A stretch of DNA of 64,000 nucleotides, from UHGV virus genome UHGV-0134996. One strand, given 5' to 3'. Shown here in pieces: positions 7,883-59,631 of the stretch. How positions within the stretch are numbered: position 1 is the stretch's first letter; each line of letters starts with the position of its first letter. The DNA comes from a virus. The notes beneath the pieces were generated by a model that saw only the letters and a list, made by a program, of their open reading frames with translations, made no database searches and was not told the DNA's origin. Made by a program: the position numbers and the translations under genes.

Positions 7883-8546
7883 GGTCCACCTCATGCTTTT
7901 CAGCCACCAGCGGCAATAAAGCCCTGGCCATCTTATGAACCAATAGTGCATCAATAATGCCAAGCGTATGCCCCGGCTTAATGTTTAATGCCGCCTCAAG
8001 GCGACACCTTTCCAGGCCACTTTTCTCGGCTTGTTTATGATGATCTGGTGTAATAACGTCGCCCAAAACACGGCTAATTCTTTCTCGTAATTGCTGGGTG
8101 CCAGCACACTTGATCGCTGTATCGTGGAGACGGTTAACCAGTTCGCGATAAACATGCGGCTTAATTCGGATACGTTCACCGGTGACGCCCTTTCCTGGTG
8201 CTGGCACCGAACTATCCGGAATATCCGGATAGTTGCCAGCCTCGTAAGCTACCCGCAGCCAGTGCATGAATGTTTCAGTGGACACACAACCACAGTCCAC
8301 ATCGATTTTCCCGCGTTGCTGTTCCAGCCAATGCTCAAAATTCAATCTACACGTATTACTTTCATGTTGCTCTTTTTGTCTCAAGGCCAGCACCTGTTGG
8401 GCCAGTTCCAGAACGATACCGGGTGACGCTAACCTCTCAAATTCCAATAAATAGTTTGCGTCAGGATGACAAGTAGCCTCGCCTGCAAAAAATACCAATT
8501 GCTGTAAGTATGCTGTCGTTAGAGTAGTCATTTCTTTTTGCGCCAT
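7866..8546 (-). CDS. Hypothetical protein (island early-region gene)
   Basis: 226 aa ORF in minus-strand operon. Confidence 0.4.
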   Translation of the reverse strand: MAQKEMTTLTTAYLQQLVFFAGEATCHPDANYLLEFERLASPGIVLELAQQVLALRQKEQHESNTCRLNFEHWLEQQRGKIDVDCGCVSTETFMHWLRVAYEAGNYPDIPDSSVPAPGKGVTGERIRIKPHVYRELVNRLHDTAIKCAGTQQLRERISRVLGDVITPDHHKQAEKSGLERCRLEAALNIKPGHTLGIIDALLVHKMARALLPLVAEKHEVDHANES

Positions 8547-52640: not shown

Positions 52641-52725
52641 ATTTGCTACGACGGCGGAACTATAAGCCTGAACGATTAAAAGGTCAATATGATGCGAAAA
52701 GATAGCATTCGCGACTTAAAAATAC

Positions 52726-52742
52726 AAATCTATTAGAGCATT
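52726..52742 (-). promoter_or_regulatory. C1 operator-like 17-mer (15/17)
   Basis: Plus strand aaatctattagagcatt upstream of c4-icd-ant. Confidence 0.55.
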
Positions 52743-52838
52743 ATCTGATTAGTAAATACACAACTGGATCTAATAACCTCTTTTTTTTAAAGGCGAAAAT
52801 ATGTACCCTAAATGAGTTATAAGGCAGGTGAGGTTATA

Positions 52839-53486
52839 ATGAGAAAACTATTACTACCGTTATTATTTATGGCTGGGACTGTTAATGCAGCATCAAGCGT
52901 AAAGGAGATTTGTACCGATTATACGAAATACCTTGGGCACGTTTACGGCTTTGCTGTCAGTCAAGACGAATCCATGCGCAAGAAGTTACTGTCAGATATG
53001 AAACGCCTTAAACTTTCTGAAGCGATGGTGCAGCAAGAACTGTATAAAGTCGCAACCAACGAAAATGCTAAATATCAATATTCTCGCCTGTTAAATCCCG
53101 ACGCAAACGAGATCAATCGAAGCTCTTTCGATTATATGGTAAAGGCATGCGAAACCGCTCCTGATTTTGCTATTCCTAGCTGGGGTGTGCTGGTGGCGAG
53201 CAATGCCGTTAATAAAGAAGACGTTGGAAGAAATGGCATTGATTCAATCAGAAACTCACCGGGAATGCGCCATCAAAACGTTCAGGGTACGCTTGAAGAA
53301 CGGGCCAGGGGGCCGGGTACAAACTCCCCAATGGGAAACCTCTCCCCGGAGGAATTGCAAGAGTATAACCAACGGATGGAGCAGTATGAGAAAGCTGCAC
53401 GCGAAAAAATGGAACAACAAAAAAACGGATCTCTTAATACTTTCCAGCAAGGTTTAAAAGCGCTTAATTTACCCTATGAATGGTGA
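52839..53486 (+). CDS. Secreted protein with signal peptide (sim-like position)
   Basis: MRKLLLPLLFMAGTVNAASS signal peptide; AGGTGAGG RBS; shares peptide motif with Sit. Confidence 0.5.
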   Translation: MRKLLLPLLFMAGTVNAASSVKEICTDYTKYLGHVYGFAVSQDESMRKKLLSDMKRLKLSEAMVQQELYKVATNENAKYQYSRLLNPDANEINRSSFDYMVKACETAPDFAIPSWGVLVASNAVNKEDVGRNGIDSIRNSPGMRHQNVQGTLEERARGPGTNSPMGNLSPEELQEYNQRMEQYEKAAREKMEQQKNGSLNTFQQGLKALNLPYEW

Positions 53487-53537
53487 ATATATGGTGGTTA
53501 ACTAATTAAAATATTAATATCCAAAGGAGATAAATTA

Positions 53538-54014
53538 ATGCGCATCAAACGATTTTTACTAGTTATTGCTTTGCTTACTCCGTTTTCATCAATGGCAAAT
53601 GTAAGCAAATGGTCAACCGGCGAGACTCATGGTGTTCGTTCTTATGCTGTTTCCAGCAAAGATAATTATACGCTTACATTTGAGTGCGATGTTGGATTTA
53701 ATAATACGGATCCCAATCAAGTAGGAACACGACTACTCACTCTCATGAAAACAGAACCTGGCGGTGAGTCATTTGAGGCTAAAAAAGAACAAATAACGCT
53801 GAAAGTTGGTGATGATGAATATCCTATCAGTTCTATCGGTTCCTCTGTGGGTGATAGTTACTGGTATGGTTTTTGGTCAGATACCCCTGATATGGAAGTT
53901 AAAACATTCGATGCATACGTAGACGGAAAAAAAATCGCAACATTTACGCTACGTAAGGCCGCAGAGCTTTTCAACGCGGCACCTGAAGATGGCTGCCTGA
54001 AGCGCGCAAAATGA
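53538..54014 (+). CDS. Secreted protein with signal peptide
   Basis: MRIKRFLLVIALLTPFSSMA signal peptide. Confidence 0.5.
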   Translation: MRIKRFLLVIALLTPFSSMANVSKWSTGETHGVRSYAVSSKDNYTLTFECDVGFNNTDPNQVGTRLLTLMKTEPGGESFEAKKEQITLKVGDDEYPISSIGSSVGDSYWYGFWSDTPDMEVKTFDAYVDGKKIATFTLRKAAELFNAAPEDGCLKRAK

Positions 54015-54048
54015 CCTGTCACAAATGACTACTCGTAGAATCGGTTAA

Positions 54049-54639
<591 letters not shown>

Positions 54640-54649
54640 GGGAGCTGAT

Positions 54650-55261
54650 ATGGGGCTTAATGTTGCTTCAGTAAAGTCTTATGTATCTTCGGCATTAACG
54701 ACGACATTATTTGGCTCCGGCGTTGGTGAGCGGGAAGTTGGTAAGCTGACGTCAATCATCATGAACAAAATGTTGTTCGCGCAAGGATGGCAGTTCTCTG
54801 TCGAAGTTGATGGACTGGAGGGGGCAGACTTCTTTGCCAAAGACATTACCTACCACGATTACAGCATCGAATATGAAACGATTAAAATCGGCGGAGGGAA
54901 TATCCTTCAACCAACGGAGCGTTCGCCTGGGCAGATAACAATGATGGTCAGGGATACCGGTGATGGCCTTGTTTTTGACTGGTTTAATACGGCAAAAAGT
55001 CGGGTGATCAATCCGGACGGTACCGGGAATATACCGTCTAAATATTTGCTCAATGTGCGTATTTATCGGTTGCTGTCTTCCGGCTTAACCAAACTGGAAA
55101 ATGAGATGACGGTATTCCCGGTCACTACCGGCGATGTCACCTATGCGCGAGATCAGGTTACTGAATTTAAGTCATTCCCAATGACCTTCGCATTGCACAG
55201 CACGTTTAACCAATCCTCAAGTTCTTTGGCTTCCCTTCTGGGCTTTAGCTTTTCTCTTTGA
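54650..55261 (+). CDS. Hypothetical virion-associated protein
   Basis: 203 aa. Confidence 0.4.
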   Translation: MGLNVASVKSYVSSALTTTLFGSGVGEREVGKLTSIIMNKMLFAQGWQFSVEVDGLEGADFFAKDITYHDYSIEYETIKIGGGNILQPTERSPGQITMMVRDTGDGLVFDWFNTAKSRVINPDGTGNIPSKYLLNVRIYRLLSSGLTKLENEMTVFPVTTGDVTYARDQVTEFKSFPMTFALHSTFNQSSSSLASLLGFSFSL

Positions 55262-55275
55262 ATTAAGGAGCAAGG

Positions 55276-56157
55276 ATGCTTTTACCTCTTTTCCCGCTAC
55301 CATCGCGGCCAACTGAATTGATCCAGTTCCGTCAGCCGAATATTGCTGATGCGATGCGTTTCAACTCGATAACACCGGAGGAACAAGAACAACAGACAAC
55401 GGCGTATTTAAAAGCCTTGCTGGCTGAACCCGCGAAATATGATCCCCTGACATGGACGGCGCAGGACCGGATTACCGCGTTATGGTGGATATTTACTGGC
55501 TCCCGTGAAACACCGGTCGAGACATTCACCTACACCTGTAAACATTGCGGTAAAGAGCATTATTACGATTGCGATATGAATGCTCTGGCTGAAGATATCC
55601 AGGTCCTGGAAGTGGAACCGTTCATTGACGATATTGAGGTGTCTGTAGAGGGCGTGCCTTATCAATGGCGTATCGTGCCGCTTGATGGTTGGGCAATGGA
55701 AATGCTGGAGATGCGCCGTGCAGCATTGCCACCTGAAGACGACGCGGAATTCAAAGAAGCGATCGTTGATTTGCGTTTTTGGGAATTCGCTTATCAGTGT
55801 GAACTTTATAACGATGTTAGCGGTACTCGTGAAGAGCAGGCTGAGCGTCGTTATGAAACGATCAAACGGATGGCCATTGATACTGAATTTATGAAGCTGG
55901 CGGCACACATCCGGCTGGCTCATGAAAAGCTCGAACATGGTTTACCGTGCTACATCGATAAAGGCGAAATGCGTCTTCGTCTCCCGCCGCACAAATGCCC
56001 AAACCAGGATACAAAGGAGTCCACAGAGGGTGCGTATACCCGTCTGTGGGTGCCCTTTCGGGCTACCGACTTCATTCCACAGGTGGGGATTGAAAAGCTA
56101 TCAGACCTTAGTGTCCAACCTGGTTTTGTATGGGGGTATACCGATTCAGGACGCTGA
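55276..56157 (+). CDS. Hypothetical virion-associated protein
   Basis: 293 aa. Confidence 0.4.
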   Translation: MLLPLFPLPSRPTELIQFRQPNIADAMRFNSITPEEQEQQTTAYLKALLAEPAKYDPLTWTAQDRITALWWIFTGSRETPVETFTYTCKHCGKEHYYDCDMNALAEDIQVLEVEPFIDDIEVSVEGVPYQWRIVPLDGWAMEMLEMRRAALPPEDDAEFKEAIVDLRFWEFAYQCELYNDVSGTREEQAERRYETIKRMAIDTEFMKLAAHIRLAHEKLEHGLPCYIDKGEMRLRLPPHKCPNQDTKESTEGAYTRLWVPFRATDFIPQVGIEKLSDLSVQPGFVWGYTDSGR

Positions 56158-56238
56158 AAGGCTCACTGAATCCTATGCGTTTTTCCTGTTGGAGAAACTG
56201 GAAGAAAAACTTAAACCGAAGCGGTAGGCGATAAGATC

Positions 56239-59200
56239 ATGGAAAGAAAAAACGCCAACATTGACGATGTGATAAGGACGGTTGAAACCGCCAGCGCAAA
56301 AGAGCTGGAAGAGCTTGCAGGTATTCGGGAAGCCGTTGAAGATTTGAAAGGGGGGCGAGTTGCTACAGTTGATCCTGTCTCTCGCAGTGTGTCGGCATTA
56401 AATCGCACAATCGAAAATTCCCGGCCAGACTTTGTGGCCAATGCGCCATCAGTGGACCCTATTGTTGAGGCAATGAAACGGCTTAATTTAGGGGACGTTT
56501 CTCGTGTAGTTCAGGAGGATGTTGCTCTACAGGAACCGCAGGCCAAATCAACTACGCGAAAGGGTAAAAAACGACGCAAGAAGGCTATAACAGAAGATGT
56601 AAAGGCGCAACGGACCGAAGCAGCCGAACACGCTCGCGAAATGTTCGGTCAAAAAGGCGGTGCGCAAAAAAGCCAAAACCAACGCGATGCGCGTGGTCGT
56701 TTTATTGGAAAGTCAGGGAGTAAGGCCGCAGCGGAAGATGCCCGTGCTGAACGTGCTGAAAAGGCTAGGCGCAAAGAGGATGATGAGCGTCTAAATGCTG
56801 AATCAGGTTTATTAAAAAAACTGTCAAAAGTAGCTGAAGGCATAGGTAACCCTTCAGAGACTCGTGCCGTCGATGCGTTAGGTTATGCCGTTGCTGGTCC
56901 ATTGTGGGCAGCAGGGAAGGAGCTTGGCGGGATATCAAAAGAAGTTGGTGGATCGCTTAATGGTGCCAGAAAGTCTATTGCCGATGTGATTCGTGGCAAT
57001 GACGATAACAGCCGTAGAAAAGGTTTTTTTAGGCGTAAATCGCAAAATAGTGCCGATGTCGTTCAGGTTAACACCCAAAAACGGACGGTTCAGGAACTTC
57101 AGGAGCAGACCAGCGAAATTAAAGAGGGCAATGACAAGATTCTCCGCGCCCTTGATCAGATAGCCAAAAACACCGGTAAAAAGAAGGGCGGCTTGCTGTC
57201 CAAACTATTTAGCCTGTTAGGGAAGGGGGCCGGTGGCGTCGCGTCGTTGTTAATGGGGCGTGGCATGCTGAAAAAAGCTGGAGCACTCGCTTTTGGCGCT
57301 CTGGGGGCAAAGAAACTTGTAGGAATGCTACGCGGTGGTGGCAAGAAGACTCTCGCTCATGAAGGCGGAGATTTGGCTGCCCGGGCAGCAGGTAAACTTG
57401 GATTAAAGGCAGTTGGTAAAGGGGCGTTACGCGCAATTCCCCTAGTCGGCACAGTGGCTGGAGGTATTTATGATGCGGTAACCGGTTGGAATGATACAGA
57501 AGCGCAACGTCGAGCGTTTGGGCTTAAATCAGGACAAGATCCATCATTCCAGCAAAAAGCCGCTTATACGTTAGCCAATGTTCTTGATTTGGGGGGACTG
57601 GTATCTGGTATTAGCAGCGCTATTGGTGATGTTCTCAAATCACTTGGATTTGAGGATATCGGCAATATGTTGCAATCATTTTCGACGGAAAGTATTGCCC
57701 AGGCCATTGATAGCGGGGTTACCAACTTAGAAACATATATTTCTAACCTTGGCGACACCATTTCTACCAAGTTCGATGATTACACAGCAAAGATTGGTGA
57801 TGCTGTTTCAGCATGGTTTAGCGATACATCTAATAAGTTGCTTGAAAAGCTGGATGCCATAAAAGACTTCTTTACTGTCGATAACCTGAAACAGGTTTTC
57901 AGTGATGCAATTGATAGTGCAATTGACTTCATTAAGAACCCAGGGAAACACATTAAAGAGGCGGCTGGTAATATTTGGGATGGGGTTAAAAATTTACCCG
58001 GTAAAGCATTAGATGCAGCGGTTGATGCCGTTAAAAATACCCCTGCGGCAATGATTGTATCAAAAATACCCAATCCGATCGGCGAGGCTAATGCAAAAGA
58101 AATCACTCCAGAGTTAAAAGCTCCGGTTAATAGCCACCAGGAGACATCTGATTCTAAAACTGAATCCGATGCTAAACAGACTAATATTGCTACCCGCGTG
58201 ATAAATGCGGCACTGGACACGGCGAAAGATAGCAATAAAACAGTTAAAGAAACTGCCAATCAGATTATCAATGCAAATGCCGTAGAAACGGGCAATAGCG
58301 CGGTGCGGAAAATTGATTCAGCTATTGGACAAAATAGCTCGTCATCATCGTCGCGTAATACCACCGGCACTGGGAATGACATTCAGAAAGCTGCTGATAC
58401 CTACAATAATGGCAACTTAGATGTAAAAGTCGGAAGCCTTGGCGCTGAAGGTAAGGCAAATCTCGATAAGTTAGCTCCGTATTTTGCTGAACTAGAGAAT
58501 AAATATGGTCTTCCTGAAGGCACTCTTTACGCGATTGCTGCAACTGAATCTGGTGGTAATCCATACGCAAAATCCCAAACTGGTGCTCTAGGAATGTTTC
58601 AGTTCACGGGCATTGCTCGTGAAGAGACTGGCTTAGCTGAAGGTGAATCGTTTGATCCTGTGAAATCGGCAGAAGCTGCGGCTCTTCTCATGAGCAAGTA
58701 TCTGAAGCAAGCCAATGGAGACTTAAACGAGGCCATCACTGCATATAACGCTGGGTTTGGCACTATTAATAAGTGGAAAAAAGGCACCGGTGACTTATCG
58801 AAGGAAAACCGTGAGTACGCGATCAAGGTCAATACTCATCGTGCTCGCTATTTAGGTGGTGAAATCTATACACCTGGGGCAGGAGCACAGGGTGGGGCGC
58901 AATATGGAGTGAGGGGACAACTGCCTGATAACGCCGTTATCGATCAGTCTACTGGTCTGGCGTTTACCCCTGGTGATAGCCCGTTTGAGAAAGGCGGTCT
59001 GGTAGACAAAATCGGCAATGCTGTTGGCGTTAACGATCTGGTCAACAAATTCATGAATGGCCGGGGTATGCGTCGGGAAGTCGTTCAGGGAACGCTCGAA
59101 GAACGTGCACGAGGGAAGGGGACCGCAACAGCAGCTGGCAATGTGTATGTTGATACTCCGATGCCAGTTGAAGAGGCGCGTCCGGTGGCCAGCAACTCAA

Positions 59201-59631
59201 GTTACTTTGACCAACTCGGCGCACAAATGGGGATTGATGGACTATTCGATAAACTCCGCAACTCGCCGGGGATGCGGAAAAATAATGCGCCTGAACCAGC
59301 CTCCACGTCCCAGGTGACGACTGCCGCCAACGATTTGCAGCAACCAACCGGTCGTATGCAGATAGACGGGCAGGTTATTAGTGACCTTGGCGGTTCCGGT
59401 GCCAAGCCGACAATGCAGTTGGCTGATAATACCGTTTCACTTGATGGTGAAACGAAGCGGCTGTTTGCGCAGATGACCTCATTGCTTGCCAGGATTGAAG
59501 AGCACACCAAAGACTCGGCGAAAGGCCAGGGAACTGTCGTAAAGGTCAGCACGCCTCAGCCGGGCGTTATGCGCACGGTACCACTGTCAATTGATGATCC
59601 GTTGATGAATGACTACGCGAGAGTTGATTGA
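56239..59631 (+). CDS. sit: Sit-like structural injection transglycosylase / tape-measure-like protein
   Basis: 1130 aa; Gly/Ala-rich repeats; SLT motif ESGGNPYAKSQTGALGMFQF. Confidence 0.8.
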   Translation: MERKNANIDDVIRTVETASAKELEELAGIREAVEDLKGGRVATVDPVSRSVSALNRTIENSRPDFVANAPSVDPIVEAMKRLNLGDVSRVVQEDVALQEPQAKSTTRKGKKRRKKAITEDVKAQRTEAAEHAREMFGQKGGAQKSQNQRDARGRFIGKSGSKAAAEDARAERAEKARRKEDDERLNAESGLLKKLSKVAEGIGNPSETRAVDALGYAVAGPLWAAGKELGGISKEVGGSLNGARKSIADVIRGNDDNSRRKGFFRRKSQNSADVVQVNTQKRTVQELQEQTSEIKEGNDKILRALDQIAKNTGKKKGGLLSKLFSLLGKGAGGVASLLMGRGMLKKAGALAFGALGAKKLVGMLRGGGKKTLAHEGGDLAARAAGKLGLKAVGKGALRAIPLVGTVAGGIYDAVTGWNDTEAQRRAFGLKSGQDPSFQQKAAYTLANVLDLGGLVSGISSAIGDVLKSLGFEDIGNMLQSFSTESIAQAIDSGVTNLETYISNLGDTISTKFDDYTAKIGDAVSAWFSDTSNKLLEKLDAIKDFFTVDNLKQVFSDAIDSAIDFIKNPGKHIKEAAGNIWDGVKNLPGKALDAAVDAVKNTPAAMIVSKIPNPIGEANAKEITPELKAPVNSHQETSDSKTESDAKQTNIATRVINAALDTAKDSNKTVKETANQIINANAVETGNSAVRKIDSAIGQNSSSSSSRNTTGTGNDIQKAADTYNNGNLDVKVGSLGAEGKANLDKLAPYFAELENKYGLPEGTLYAIAATESGGNPYAKSQTGALGMFQFTGIAREETGLAEGESFDPVKSAEAAALLMSKYLKQANGDLNEAITAYNAGFGTINKWKKGTGDLSKENREYAIKVNTHRARYLGGEIYTPGAGAQGGAQYGVRGQLPDNAVIDQSTGLAFTPGDSPFEKGGLVDKIGNAVGVNDLVNKFMNGRGMRREVVQGTLEERARGKGTATAAGNVYVDTPMPVEEARPVASNSSYFDQLGAQMGIDGLFDKLRNSPGMRKNNAPEPASTSQVTTAANDLQQPTGRMQIDGQVISDLGGSGAKPTMQLADNTVSLDGETKRLFAQMTSLLARIEEHTKDSAKGQGTVVKVSTPQPGVMRTVPLSIDDPLMNDYARVD

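Follow-up and report, generated by a model that had tools for sequence, protein, structure and literature searches.

T4 Sp inhibits the tail-associated gp5 lysozyme and is an exclusion factor directed against the peptidoglycan-degrading activity of the tail tip. Exclusion can also be directed at the tape measure protein, on which T4 Imm acts (bioRxiv 10.64898/2026.03.06.709160) and which is the genetic target of TP-J34 Ltp and HK97 gp15, two prophage envelope proteins that block DNA injection after adsorption (PMC10883804). The tape measure protein of phage P1 has been assigned as Sit (PMC9024508); P1 requires sit but can do without its sim genes (PMC10695390), and the slot in which the latter lie is known to vary among P1-like phages (PMC9603915). 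Here we analyse the gene found in the sim slot of the virus genome UHGV-0134996, of which a stretch of 64,000 nucleotides (the window) was available. It encodes a SimA-like protein of 215 residues that shares a short peptide with the C-terminal region of Sit, and a preliminary description of the window had proposed that the protein is secreted and excludes superinfecting phages by mimicking Sit.

The window is recognisably that of a P1-like phage. Positions 52700–54100 are 99.9% identical to Escherichia phage vB_EcoM-Ro157c2YLVW (Punavirus), and the genes stand in the same order as in P1: icd/ant (minus strand), the 215-residue open reading frame (ORF), an ORF of 158 residues, pmgC, tub, pmgB, sit, pmgA and bplA. 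The gene order in both the window and P1 places the 215-residue gene (52839..53486, plus strand) between the c4/icd/ant immunity region and pmgC, which agrees with the sim position first proposed for it.

A peptide shared by the SimA-like protein and Sit

All three peptide strings quoted in the preliminary description are present in the two proteins, essentially where it had placed them. The string GIDSIRNSPGMRHQNVQGTLEERARGPGT occupies residues 133–161 of the 215-residue protein (nt 53235–53321) and GMRREVVQGTLEERARGKGT occupies residues 943–962 of Sit (nt 59065–59124). By BLASTP, residues 122–168 of the SimA-like protein (53202..53342, plus strand; core GIDSIRNSPGMRHQNVQGTLEERARGPGTNSPMGNLSP) align with Sit residues 927–969 at 49% identity over 47 residues, with E = 6e-9 after compositional adjustment. 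A second alignment joins residue 134 onward of the SimA-like protein to residue 1003 onward of Sit (E = 0.006; independent E-value of the domain, 0.071). The PHROG profiles match reciprocally over the same residues, the 215-residue protein finding phrog_2533 (1.2e-7) and Sit finding phrog_3933 (7.8e-6).

The module, as we shall call it, was at first taken to be split in two in Sit. This is not so: an alignment of 11 P1-like Sit sequences shows one contiguous full copy, residues 927–969 (NAVGVNDLVNKFMNGRGMRREVVQGTLEERARGKGTATAAGNV; 59017..59145, plus strand), and a lineage-specific half-repeat, to which the second alignment corresponds. The full copy is kept in 11 of the 11 Sits, including the most distant of them, P0037. 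The module is made up of two sub-motifs, phi-x-N-x-x-G-M-R-x-Q followed by V-Q/E-G-T/S-L-x-E-R-A-R/Y-G-x-G-T. The similarity extends further with the more divergent Sits, where GTNSPMGNLSP of the SimA-like protein aligns with GTTTSMGNVSP of Sit, and on this ground we put the length of the module at ~42 residues.

A profile built from six module sequences was searched, without a word filter, against 1.84e9 representative proteins. Only 10 proteins were found at E ≤ 1e-3, nine of which belong to the SimA-like or Sit families, in full or as fragments; the tenth, P0040, is a repetitive sequence of 376 residues which we read as unrelated. The objection that the shared segment might be a common or low-complexity motif is thus answered, the convincing matches being confined to two families. 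In the six-frame translation of the window, the module was not found beyond the SimA-like gene and sit. A homolog search with a 116-residue segment of Sit was uninformative, returning only six fragmentary or frameshifted proteins.

Structure prediction was carried out with AlphaFold2 from alignments that were shallow for both proteins (18 and 15 sequences), which could itself lower the predicted local distance difference test score (pLDDT). The module of the SimA-like protein is modelled with pLDDT of 45–57 and with short helices at residues 133–138 and 152–156. That of Sit has pLDDT of 31–43, with short helices at the equivalent positions. From their low pLDDT, their matching short helices and their variable or low-complexity flanks, the two copies behave in these models like linear motifs in flexible regions; in each model the flexible-looking region adjoins a confident domain, and the module forms a conserved island with variable flanks that is under purifying selection.

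Divergence of the two copies

The nucleotide similarity that had been said to match that of the peptides does exist, and it is modest, at 47/69 nt (68%) for the full copy and 27/42 nt (64%) for the half-copy, with many synonymous differences. Over the 23 best-aligned codons that make up the 69 nt, 17 residues are identical, and 10 of these 17 are encoded by different codons. The same is seen in two other lineages, where different codons are used at 8 of 15 and at 11 of 16 identical residues. Because synonymous sites are heavily diverged where the residues are identical, the divergence of the two copies is old, with long-term purifying selection on the peptide in both genes; a recent gene conversion is ruled out by the same counts.

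Anatomy of the SimA-like family and its relation to P1 simA

The 215-residue protein is an accessory protein that belongs to phrog_3933 (E = 9.8e-137 over residues 1–215, against a profile of 213 positions). We take its start to be the ATG at 52839, which has GGTGAGG 6 nt upstream; an alternative ATG at 52812 would give 224 residues. Its homologs form 28 clusters, some of which carry the name "simA domain protein", and are restricted to P1-like elements of Escherichia coli, Salmonella and Klebsiella.

Comparison with the reference phage shows that P1 SimA, of 52 residues (positions 8113–8271 of the P1 locus sequence), shares its first 45 residues, without a difference, with the reading from the 52812 ATG (window 52812–52973) and then diverges, the P1 sequence beyond residue 45 going on into simB and simC. 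Because the identity stops after 45 residues, P1 simA is a truncated 5′ remnant and the 215-residue gene is the intact form. The remnant is what was left when a simB–simC cassette replaced the rest of the simA gene together with its neighbour. Among the viral contigs of IMG/VR, long SimA-like forms are found at 45 loci and the P1-type remnant at 24.

The first part of the protein, MRKLLLPLLFMAGTVNA (52839..52889, plus strand), is a predicted Sec signal peptide, with cleavage expected after VNA. Read by eye, it has a basic n-region, a hydrophobic core of 12 residues and an A-x-A-type site, the next residue being A, and a signal-peptide-like N-terminus of this pattern is kept across the family alignment. 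By its sequence, the signal peptide reported earlier for this protein would be of canonical Sec type. It is followed by a conserved, all-helical N-domain, residues 21–120 (52899..53198, plus strand), with invariant Cys25 and Cys104, which AlphaFold2 models confidently as a helical bundle (pLDDT 90–95). The PTPlike_phytase family (PF14566) gave a match to residues 24–109 of 26.6 bits, against a gathering cut-off of 27, and lies over helical residues; we judged it likely to be spurious. The same family is precomputed for several homologs of the protein as well.

The module comes next, and then a long C-terminal helix, residues 170–208 (53346..53462, plus strand; pLDDT 63–80), which is variable or dispensable across the family, being absent or swapped for Cys-containing tails in forms of 163, 176 and 179 residues. 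In the family alignment of the module N139 and R144 are invariant and G142 and Q146 nearly so. The motif NxxGMRxQ, almost invariant, is kept in every long form and is then followed by alternative tails, either the Sit-like continuation V(Q/E)G(T/S)LxERA(R/Y)GxGT or unrelated tails that contain Cys. The 163-residue form, of which at least 13 viral contigs have a copy, ends four residues past the module and has a different cassette downstream, and P0039, a homolog only 41% identical overall, retains the whole module (NAPGMRHQAVKGSMAERARGDGT) near its C-terminus. On these grounds the N-domain plus the module, or minimally the first sub-motif of the latter, make up the conserved core of the family, and no part of the tail is better kept than the module. 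Taken together, the features suggest an exported, periplasmic protein with a helical N-domain capable of forming a disulfide, a flexible tail that bears the peptide and a variable C-terminal extension.

Sit and its module copies

The sit gene of the window (56239..59631, plus strand) encodes 1130 residues. That it specifies the tape measure protein and structural injection transglycosylase, as the preliminary description had it, is confirmed by its match to phrog_2533 (E = 0), by synteny with P1 sit, by the published assignment (PMC9024508) and by a Pfam match (PF01464, 4.6e-27) to the SLT lytic transglycosylase domain at residues 748–857 (58480..58809, plus strand). Like the other proteins of this type, it is ~1100 residues long, with SLT near the C-terminus, and is encoded between pmgB and pmgA.

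Beyond the SLT domain, a low-complexity linker is followed by a conserved island at residues ~901–970, of which the full module is the second half. Conservation is 0.71–0.85 over residues 901–970, as against 0.33–0.38 in the flanks. An insertion of ~50–60 residues then follows (residues ~971–1030; 59149..59328, plus strand), which is limited to the Sits of the P1 subgroup; it is a gap in L003–L006, L054 and P0036, and is different in P0037. Inside it lies the extra half-copy, residues 998–1015 (GIDGLFDKLRNSPGMRKN; 59230..59283, plus strand), which comprises the first sub-motif only (the xDKLxNxxGMR part). Among P1-like phages, the half-copy occurs as the alleles RNSPGMRKNN, INARGMRSNN and RNAPGMRKSN; the full strings at the sites equivalent to 59230–59283 in L011–L079 are FDKLRNSPGMRKNN, YDKLINARGMRSNN (the P1 form) and FDKLRNAPGMRKSN.

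Some Sits are mosaic. P0035 and the Sit of L049 have a C-terminal region of P1 type, including the half-copy insertion, together with an SLT segment of Salmonella type (as in L003 and P0036). This mixture of two types, seen when residues ~740–900 (window numbering) were compared, implies that sit has recombined internally, somewhere past the SLT domain and before the module island.

The AlphaFold2 model of Sit covered residues 735–1130. Only the SLT domain is confident in it, with pLDDT of 80–94 over residues ~735–875, and predictions of the C-terminal 255 residues as a monomer are uniformly of low confidence. There is no sign in this model that the module docks on the SLT domain.

The sim slot and neighbouring genes

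The divergent regulatory region upstream of the SimA-like gene (52700..52838, with no strand assigned) is homologous to the P1 stretch that contains the C1 operator Oc4/Op51, the c4 promoters and a predicted PsimA. Window positions 52700–52978 are 94.6% identical to P1 47904–48182, and Oc4, P1c4/P2c4 and the predicted PsimA are all annotated within that part of P1. On the minus strand, positions 52687–52659 hold a sigma-70-like site. By homology, then, the region would have a regulatory function.

The sim locus is a hot-spot of mosaicism, and its breakpoints fall just past residue 45, at about residue 146 and at residue 161 of the SimA-like gene. The gene that directly follows it in the window (53538..54014, plus strand) encodes a secreted protein of 158 residues with two Cys (phrog_3429). 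In four other lineages the gene that occupies this position matches Pfam PF27224 (YfjT, whose name comes from a gene of the E. coli prophage CP4-57), and a secreted YfjT-like gene accompanies the SimA-like gene in five lineages. No similarity was found between the 158-residue protein and P1 SimB or SimC. It is possible that it is a partner of the SimA-like protein.

Three observations were made on the slot in other contigs. In IMGVR_UViG_3300015177_000010 (L037, 6748–10258) the 163-residue form is followed by a different YfjT-like gene (168 residues) and then by an ORF of 394 residues; directly upstream of it is an ORF of 402 residues that we judged by eye to be TnpB-like, of the IS200/IS605 type. 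In a distant P1-like contig (metagenome scaffold ERZ28622426; L082, 6234–7421) bplB is followed at once by pmgC, immunity and sim genes being absent from the interval, and the Sit of this contig retains the module (IDKARNAPGMRHQVATGSMADRAYGMGT) despite the empty sim position. Finally, two contigs of ~2.8 kb from metagenome-assembled genomes (L008 and L009), labelled Candidatus Paenibacillus intestinavium and Bacillota bacterium, carry fragments 98–100% identical to the SimA-like gene of E. coli type, which are most likely the result of binning contamination by P1-like plasmid DNA.

Discussion

On the simplest reading of the sequences, the accessory SimA-like protein contains a duplicate of a functional peptide of Sit. 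We read them in this way because the Sit copy is universal and sit essential, because the sim genes are non-essential and their slot variable, and because one contig has the Sit module and an empty sim position. The copying would have gone from Sit to the SimA-like protein. The signs of export, namely a signal sequence with n-, h- and c-regions ending in VNA before an A and two invariant Cys, are seen both in the sequence and in the family alignment and point to a periplasmic location. For the function of the copy, we tentatively rank a periplasmic decoy first, ahead of co-assembly with the incoming Sit and of a shared envelope-targeting peptide; at a level of confidence that falls short of even, the SimA-like protein may mimic the Sit peptide and so block the entry of P1-like phages.

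The decoy could work as follows. Sit would be ejected from the tail during infection and, by analogy with the tape measure proteins of other phages, its region beyond the SLT domain would be exposed in the periplasm. A resident SimA-like protein would display the same peptide there and occupy whatever the Sit peptide must engage, be it an envelope component or Sit itself, and the DNA entry of superinfecting P1-like phages would thereby be hindered. Export would also keep the decoy apart from the cytoplasmic tail assembly of the phage that makes it. The P1 superimmunity genes occupy this slot, and T4 Imm, TP-J34 Ltp and HK97 gp15 provide precedents for exclusion aimed at tape measure proteins. 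An exported protein that bears a peptide of an ejected tail protein would be well placed to hinder entry in this way, and the exclusion function as a whole is plausible. It is plausible rather than established because simC, the experimentally defined exclusion gene and the one gene of the P1 sim locus for which a phenotype (superimmunity) is annotated, is absent from the window and SimC is not homologous to the 215-residue protein (best BLASTP E = 26).

Several other observations weigh against a decoy. A prophage that shut out carriers of its own Sit peptide would for the most part be shutting out close relatives, a benefit already given in part by C1/C4 immunity. Many members of the SimA-like family hold only the first sub-motif. 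No informative structural relative was found for the fold of the N-domain, and the 215-residue protein has no Pfam or NCBIfam match above the cut-off and no PADLOC match. Sit itself could not be resolved in a cryo-electron microscopy study of P1 (PMC12810830).

Nor is there a clear coupling between the two copies within an element. The numbers of identities (out of 23) between cognate and non-cognate modules are 17 versus 16–18, 15 versus 13–14 and 16 versus 12–15 in the three lineages, and the allele combinations in 69 viral contigs show that the half-copy alleles occur irrespective of the type of sim locus. One hint of co-variation is suggestive: a GSMA variant of the motif is common to P0039 and P0037, the most divergent of the SimA-like proteins and of the Sits, respectively. 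Against this, P0039 and P0037 could not be placed on one element, P0039 being found on contigs of ~1 kb only, and the contig of P0037 has a Sit module and no gene at the sim position.

Of the other explanations, it is unlikely, though it survives best, that the peptide is a shared anchor with no role in exclusion, tethering both proteins to the same envelope component, whether peptidoglycan or a periplasmic or inner-membrane protein. The SimA-like protein would then be a lysogenic-conversion or envelope-modifying factor, possibly acting with its YfjT-like neighbour, that gained a targeting peptide from sit by recombination. The position of the Sit module directly after a peptidoglycan-cleaving domain is in keeping with this, as are the mosaic nature of the sim locus with its three breakpoints and the secreted YfjT-like companion in five lineages, and a lack of co-variation is what would be expected if both copies bind a conserved host ligand. 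However, no known motif for peptidoglycan binding or targeting is matched by the module, which was absent from all other proteins searched, host envelope proteins included. Moreover, an anchor differs from a decoy in phenotype only, since injection would tend to be hindered by the very fact that an essential injection protein shares its ligand.

It is marginally more doubtful that the SimA-like protein poisons the incoming Sit directly. The module would in that case be a self-association element of the C-terminal region of the tape measure protein, through which the SimA-like protein co-assembles with Sit and blocks the transglycosylase or channel-forming step in a dominant-negative manner. 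No extra host factor would be required; within the tail lumen, tape measure proteins exist as multimers, and the low-confidence monomer models of the Sit C-terminus are to be expected if the region folds only in the assembly. The direct binding of T4 Imm to the tape measure protein (bioRxiv 10.64898/2026.03.06.709160) provides a precedent. Yet a homotypic contact predicts tight co-variation of the modules within an element, which was not seen, and variants with NxxGMRxQ only would lose half of the interface.

It is hardly credible that the similarity arose by chance or from low complexity, or that it is a recent conversion tract with no functional meaning. The segment does have few residues, many of them G, R, E and T, and the second Sit match taken alone is weak, but chance is effectively refuted by the compositionally adjusted E-value of the full copy, the reciprocal PHROG matches, the restriction to two families in the profile search and conservation down to 41% overall identity, and conversion by the different codons at 10 of 17 identical residues.

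The SimA-like family already figures in catalogues as a hypothetical one (phrog_3933, "SimA domain protein"), and the module that it shares with Sit is not reported in the literature searched: full-text searches found no mention of a motif common to SimA and Sit or of a tape-measure decoy, simABC being listed as a variable region. It is conceivable, although we hold it to be doubtful, that we are dealing with an exclusion strategy not described before, in which a prophage secretes a copy of a short docking peptide. The peptide would be that of the tape measure protein, which incoming relatives have to deploy in the periplasm, and they would be blocked by mimicry rather than by the masking of a receptor or the plugging of a membrane.

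The presence of a 40-residue peptide in every Sit examined and in a secreted accessory protein provides a precise and mutable handle on P1 genome delivery. If the decoy reading is true, mimicry of a target peptide joins the known mechanisms of superinfection exclusion and helps to explain why the sim slot is so variable in those P1-like phage-plasmids by which resistance genes are spread among the Enterobacteriaceae. The peptide would then mark an essential envelope contact in P1 genome delivery, and the half-copy of the P1 subgroup, together with the allelic positions of N-x-x-G-M-R, would record an arms race of the decoy with its target. The recognition of simA in the reference phage as a truncated remnant corrects the reading of the annotated P1 sim locus.

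Comparison with known exclusion systems

The closest system by position is P1 simA–simB–simC, which has in common with the locus described here the genomic slot from c4/icd/ant to pmgC, the 94.6% identical upstream DNA, the first 45 residues of SimA and the presence of predicted signal peptides on the products. It differs in having simB and simC, which the window lacks, and in that the P1 SimA of 52 residues has neither the N-domain nor the module, and because of the latter P1 itself cannot show the proposed effect.

With the exclusion proteins that target tape measure proteins, and with defence models, the 215-residue protein has no similarity that was found by PADLOC, Pfam and NCBIfam (above the cut-off) or a fold search. 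The likeness to T4 Sp is one of target: in P1-like phages the peptidoglycan-degrading activity lies in Sit, adjoining the module. The two proteins are not homologous, and the module, modelled at low confidence in the model that contains SLT, shows no sign of contact with this domain. TP-J34 Ltp, a lipoprotein, and HK97 gp15, a membrane protein, belong to phages with non-contractile tails and are unrelated in sequence; phages escape their block through changes in the tape measure protein, and no mimicry of a target peptide has been reported for them. T4 Imm is an integral inner-membrane protein that binds gp29, the tape measure protein, at a helical-bundle domain, whereas the SimA-like candidate, with no homology to it detected by Pfam or PADLOC, is a soluble protein, predicted to be exported. 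None of T4 Imm, TP-J34 Ltp and HK97 gp15 contains a copy of its target; the SimA-like protein, in contrast, carries a peptide of the tape measure protein that it may act against.

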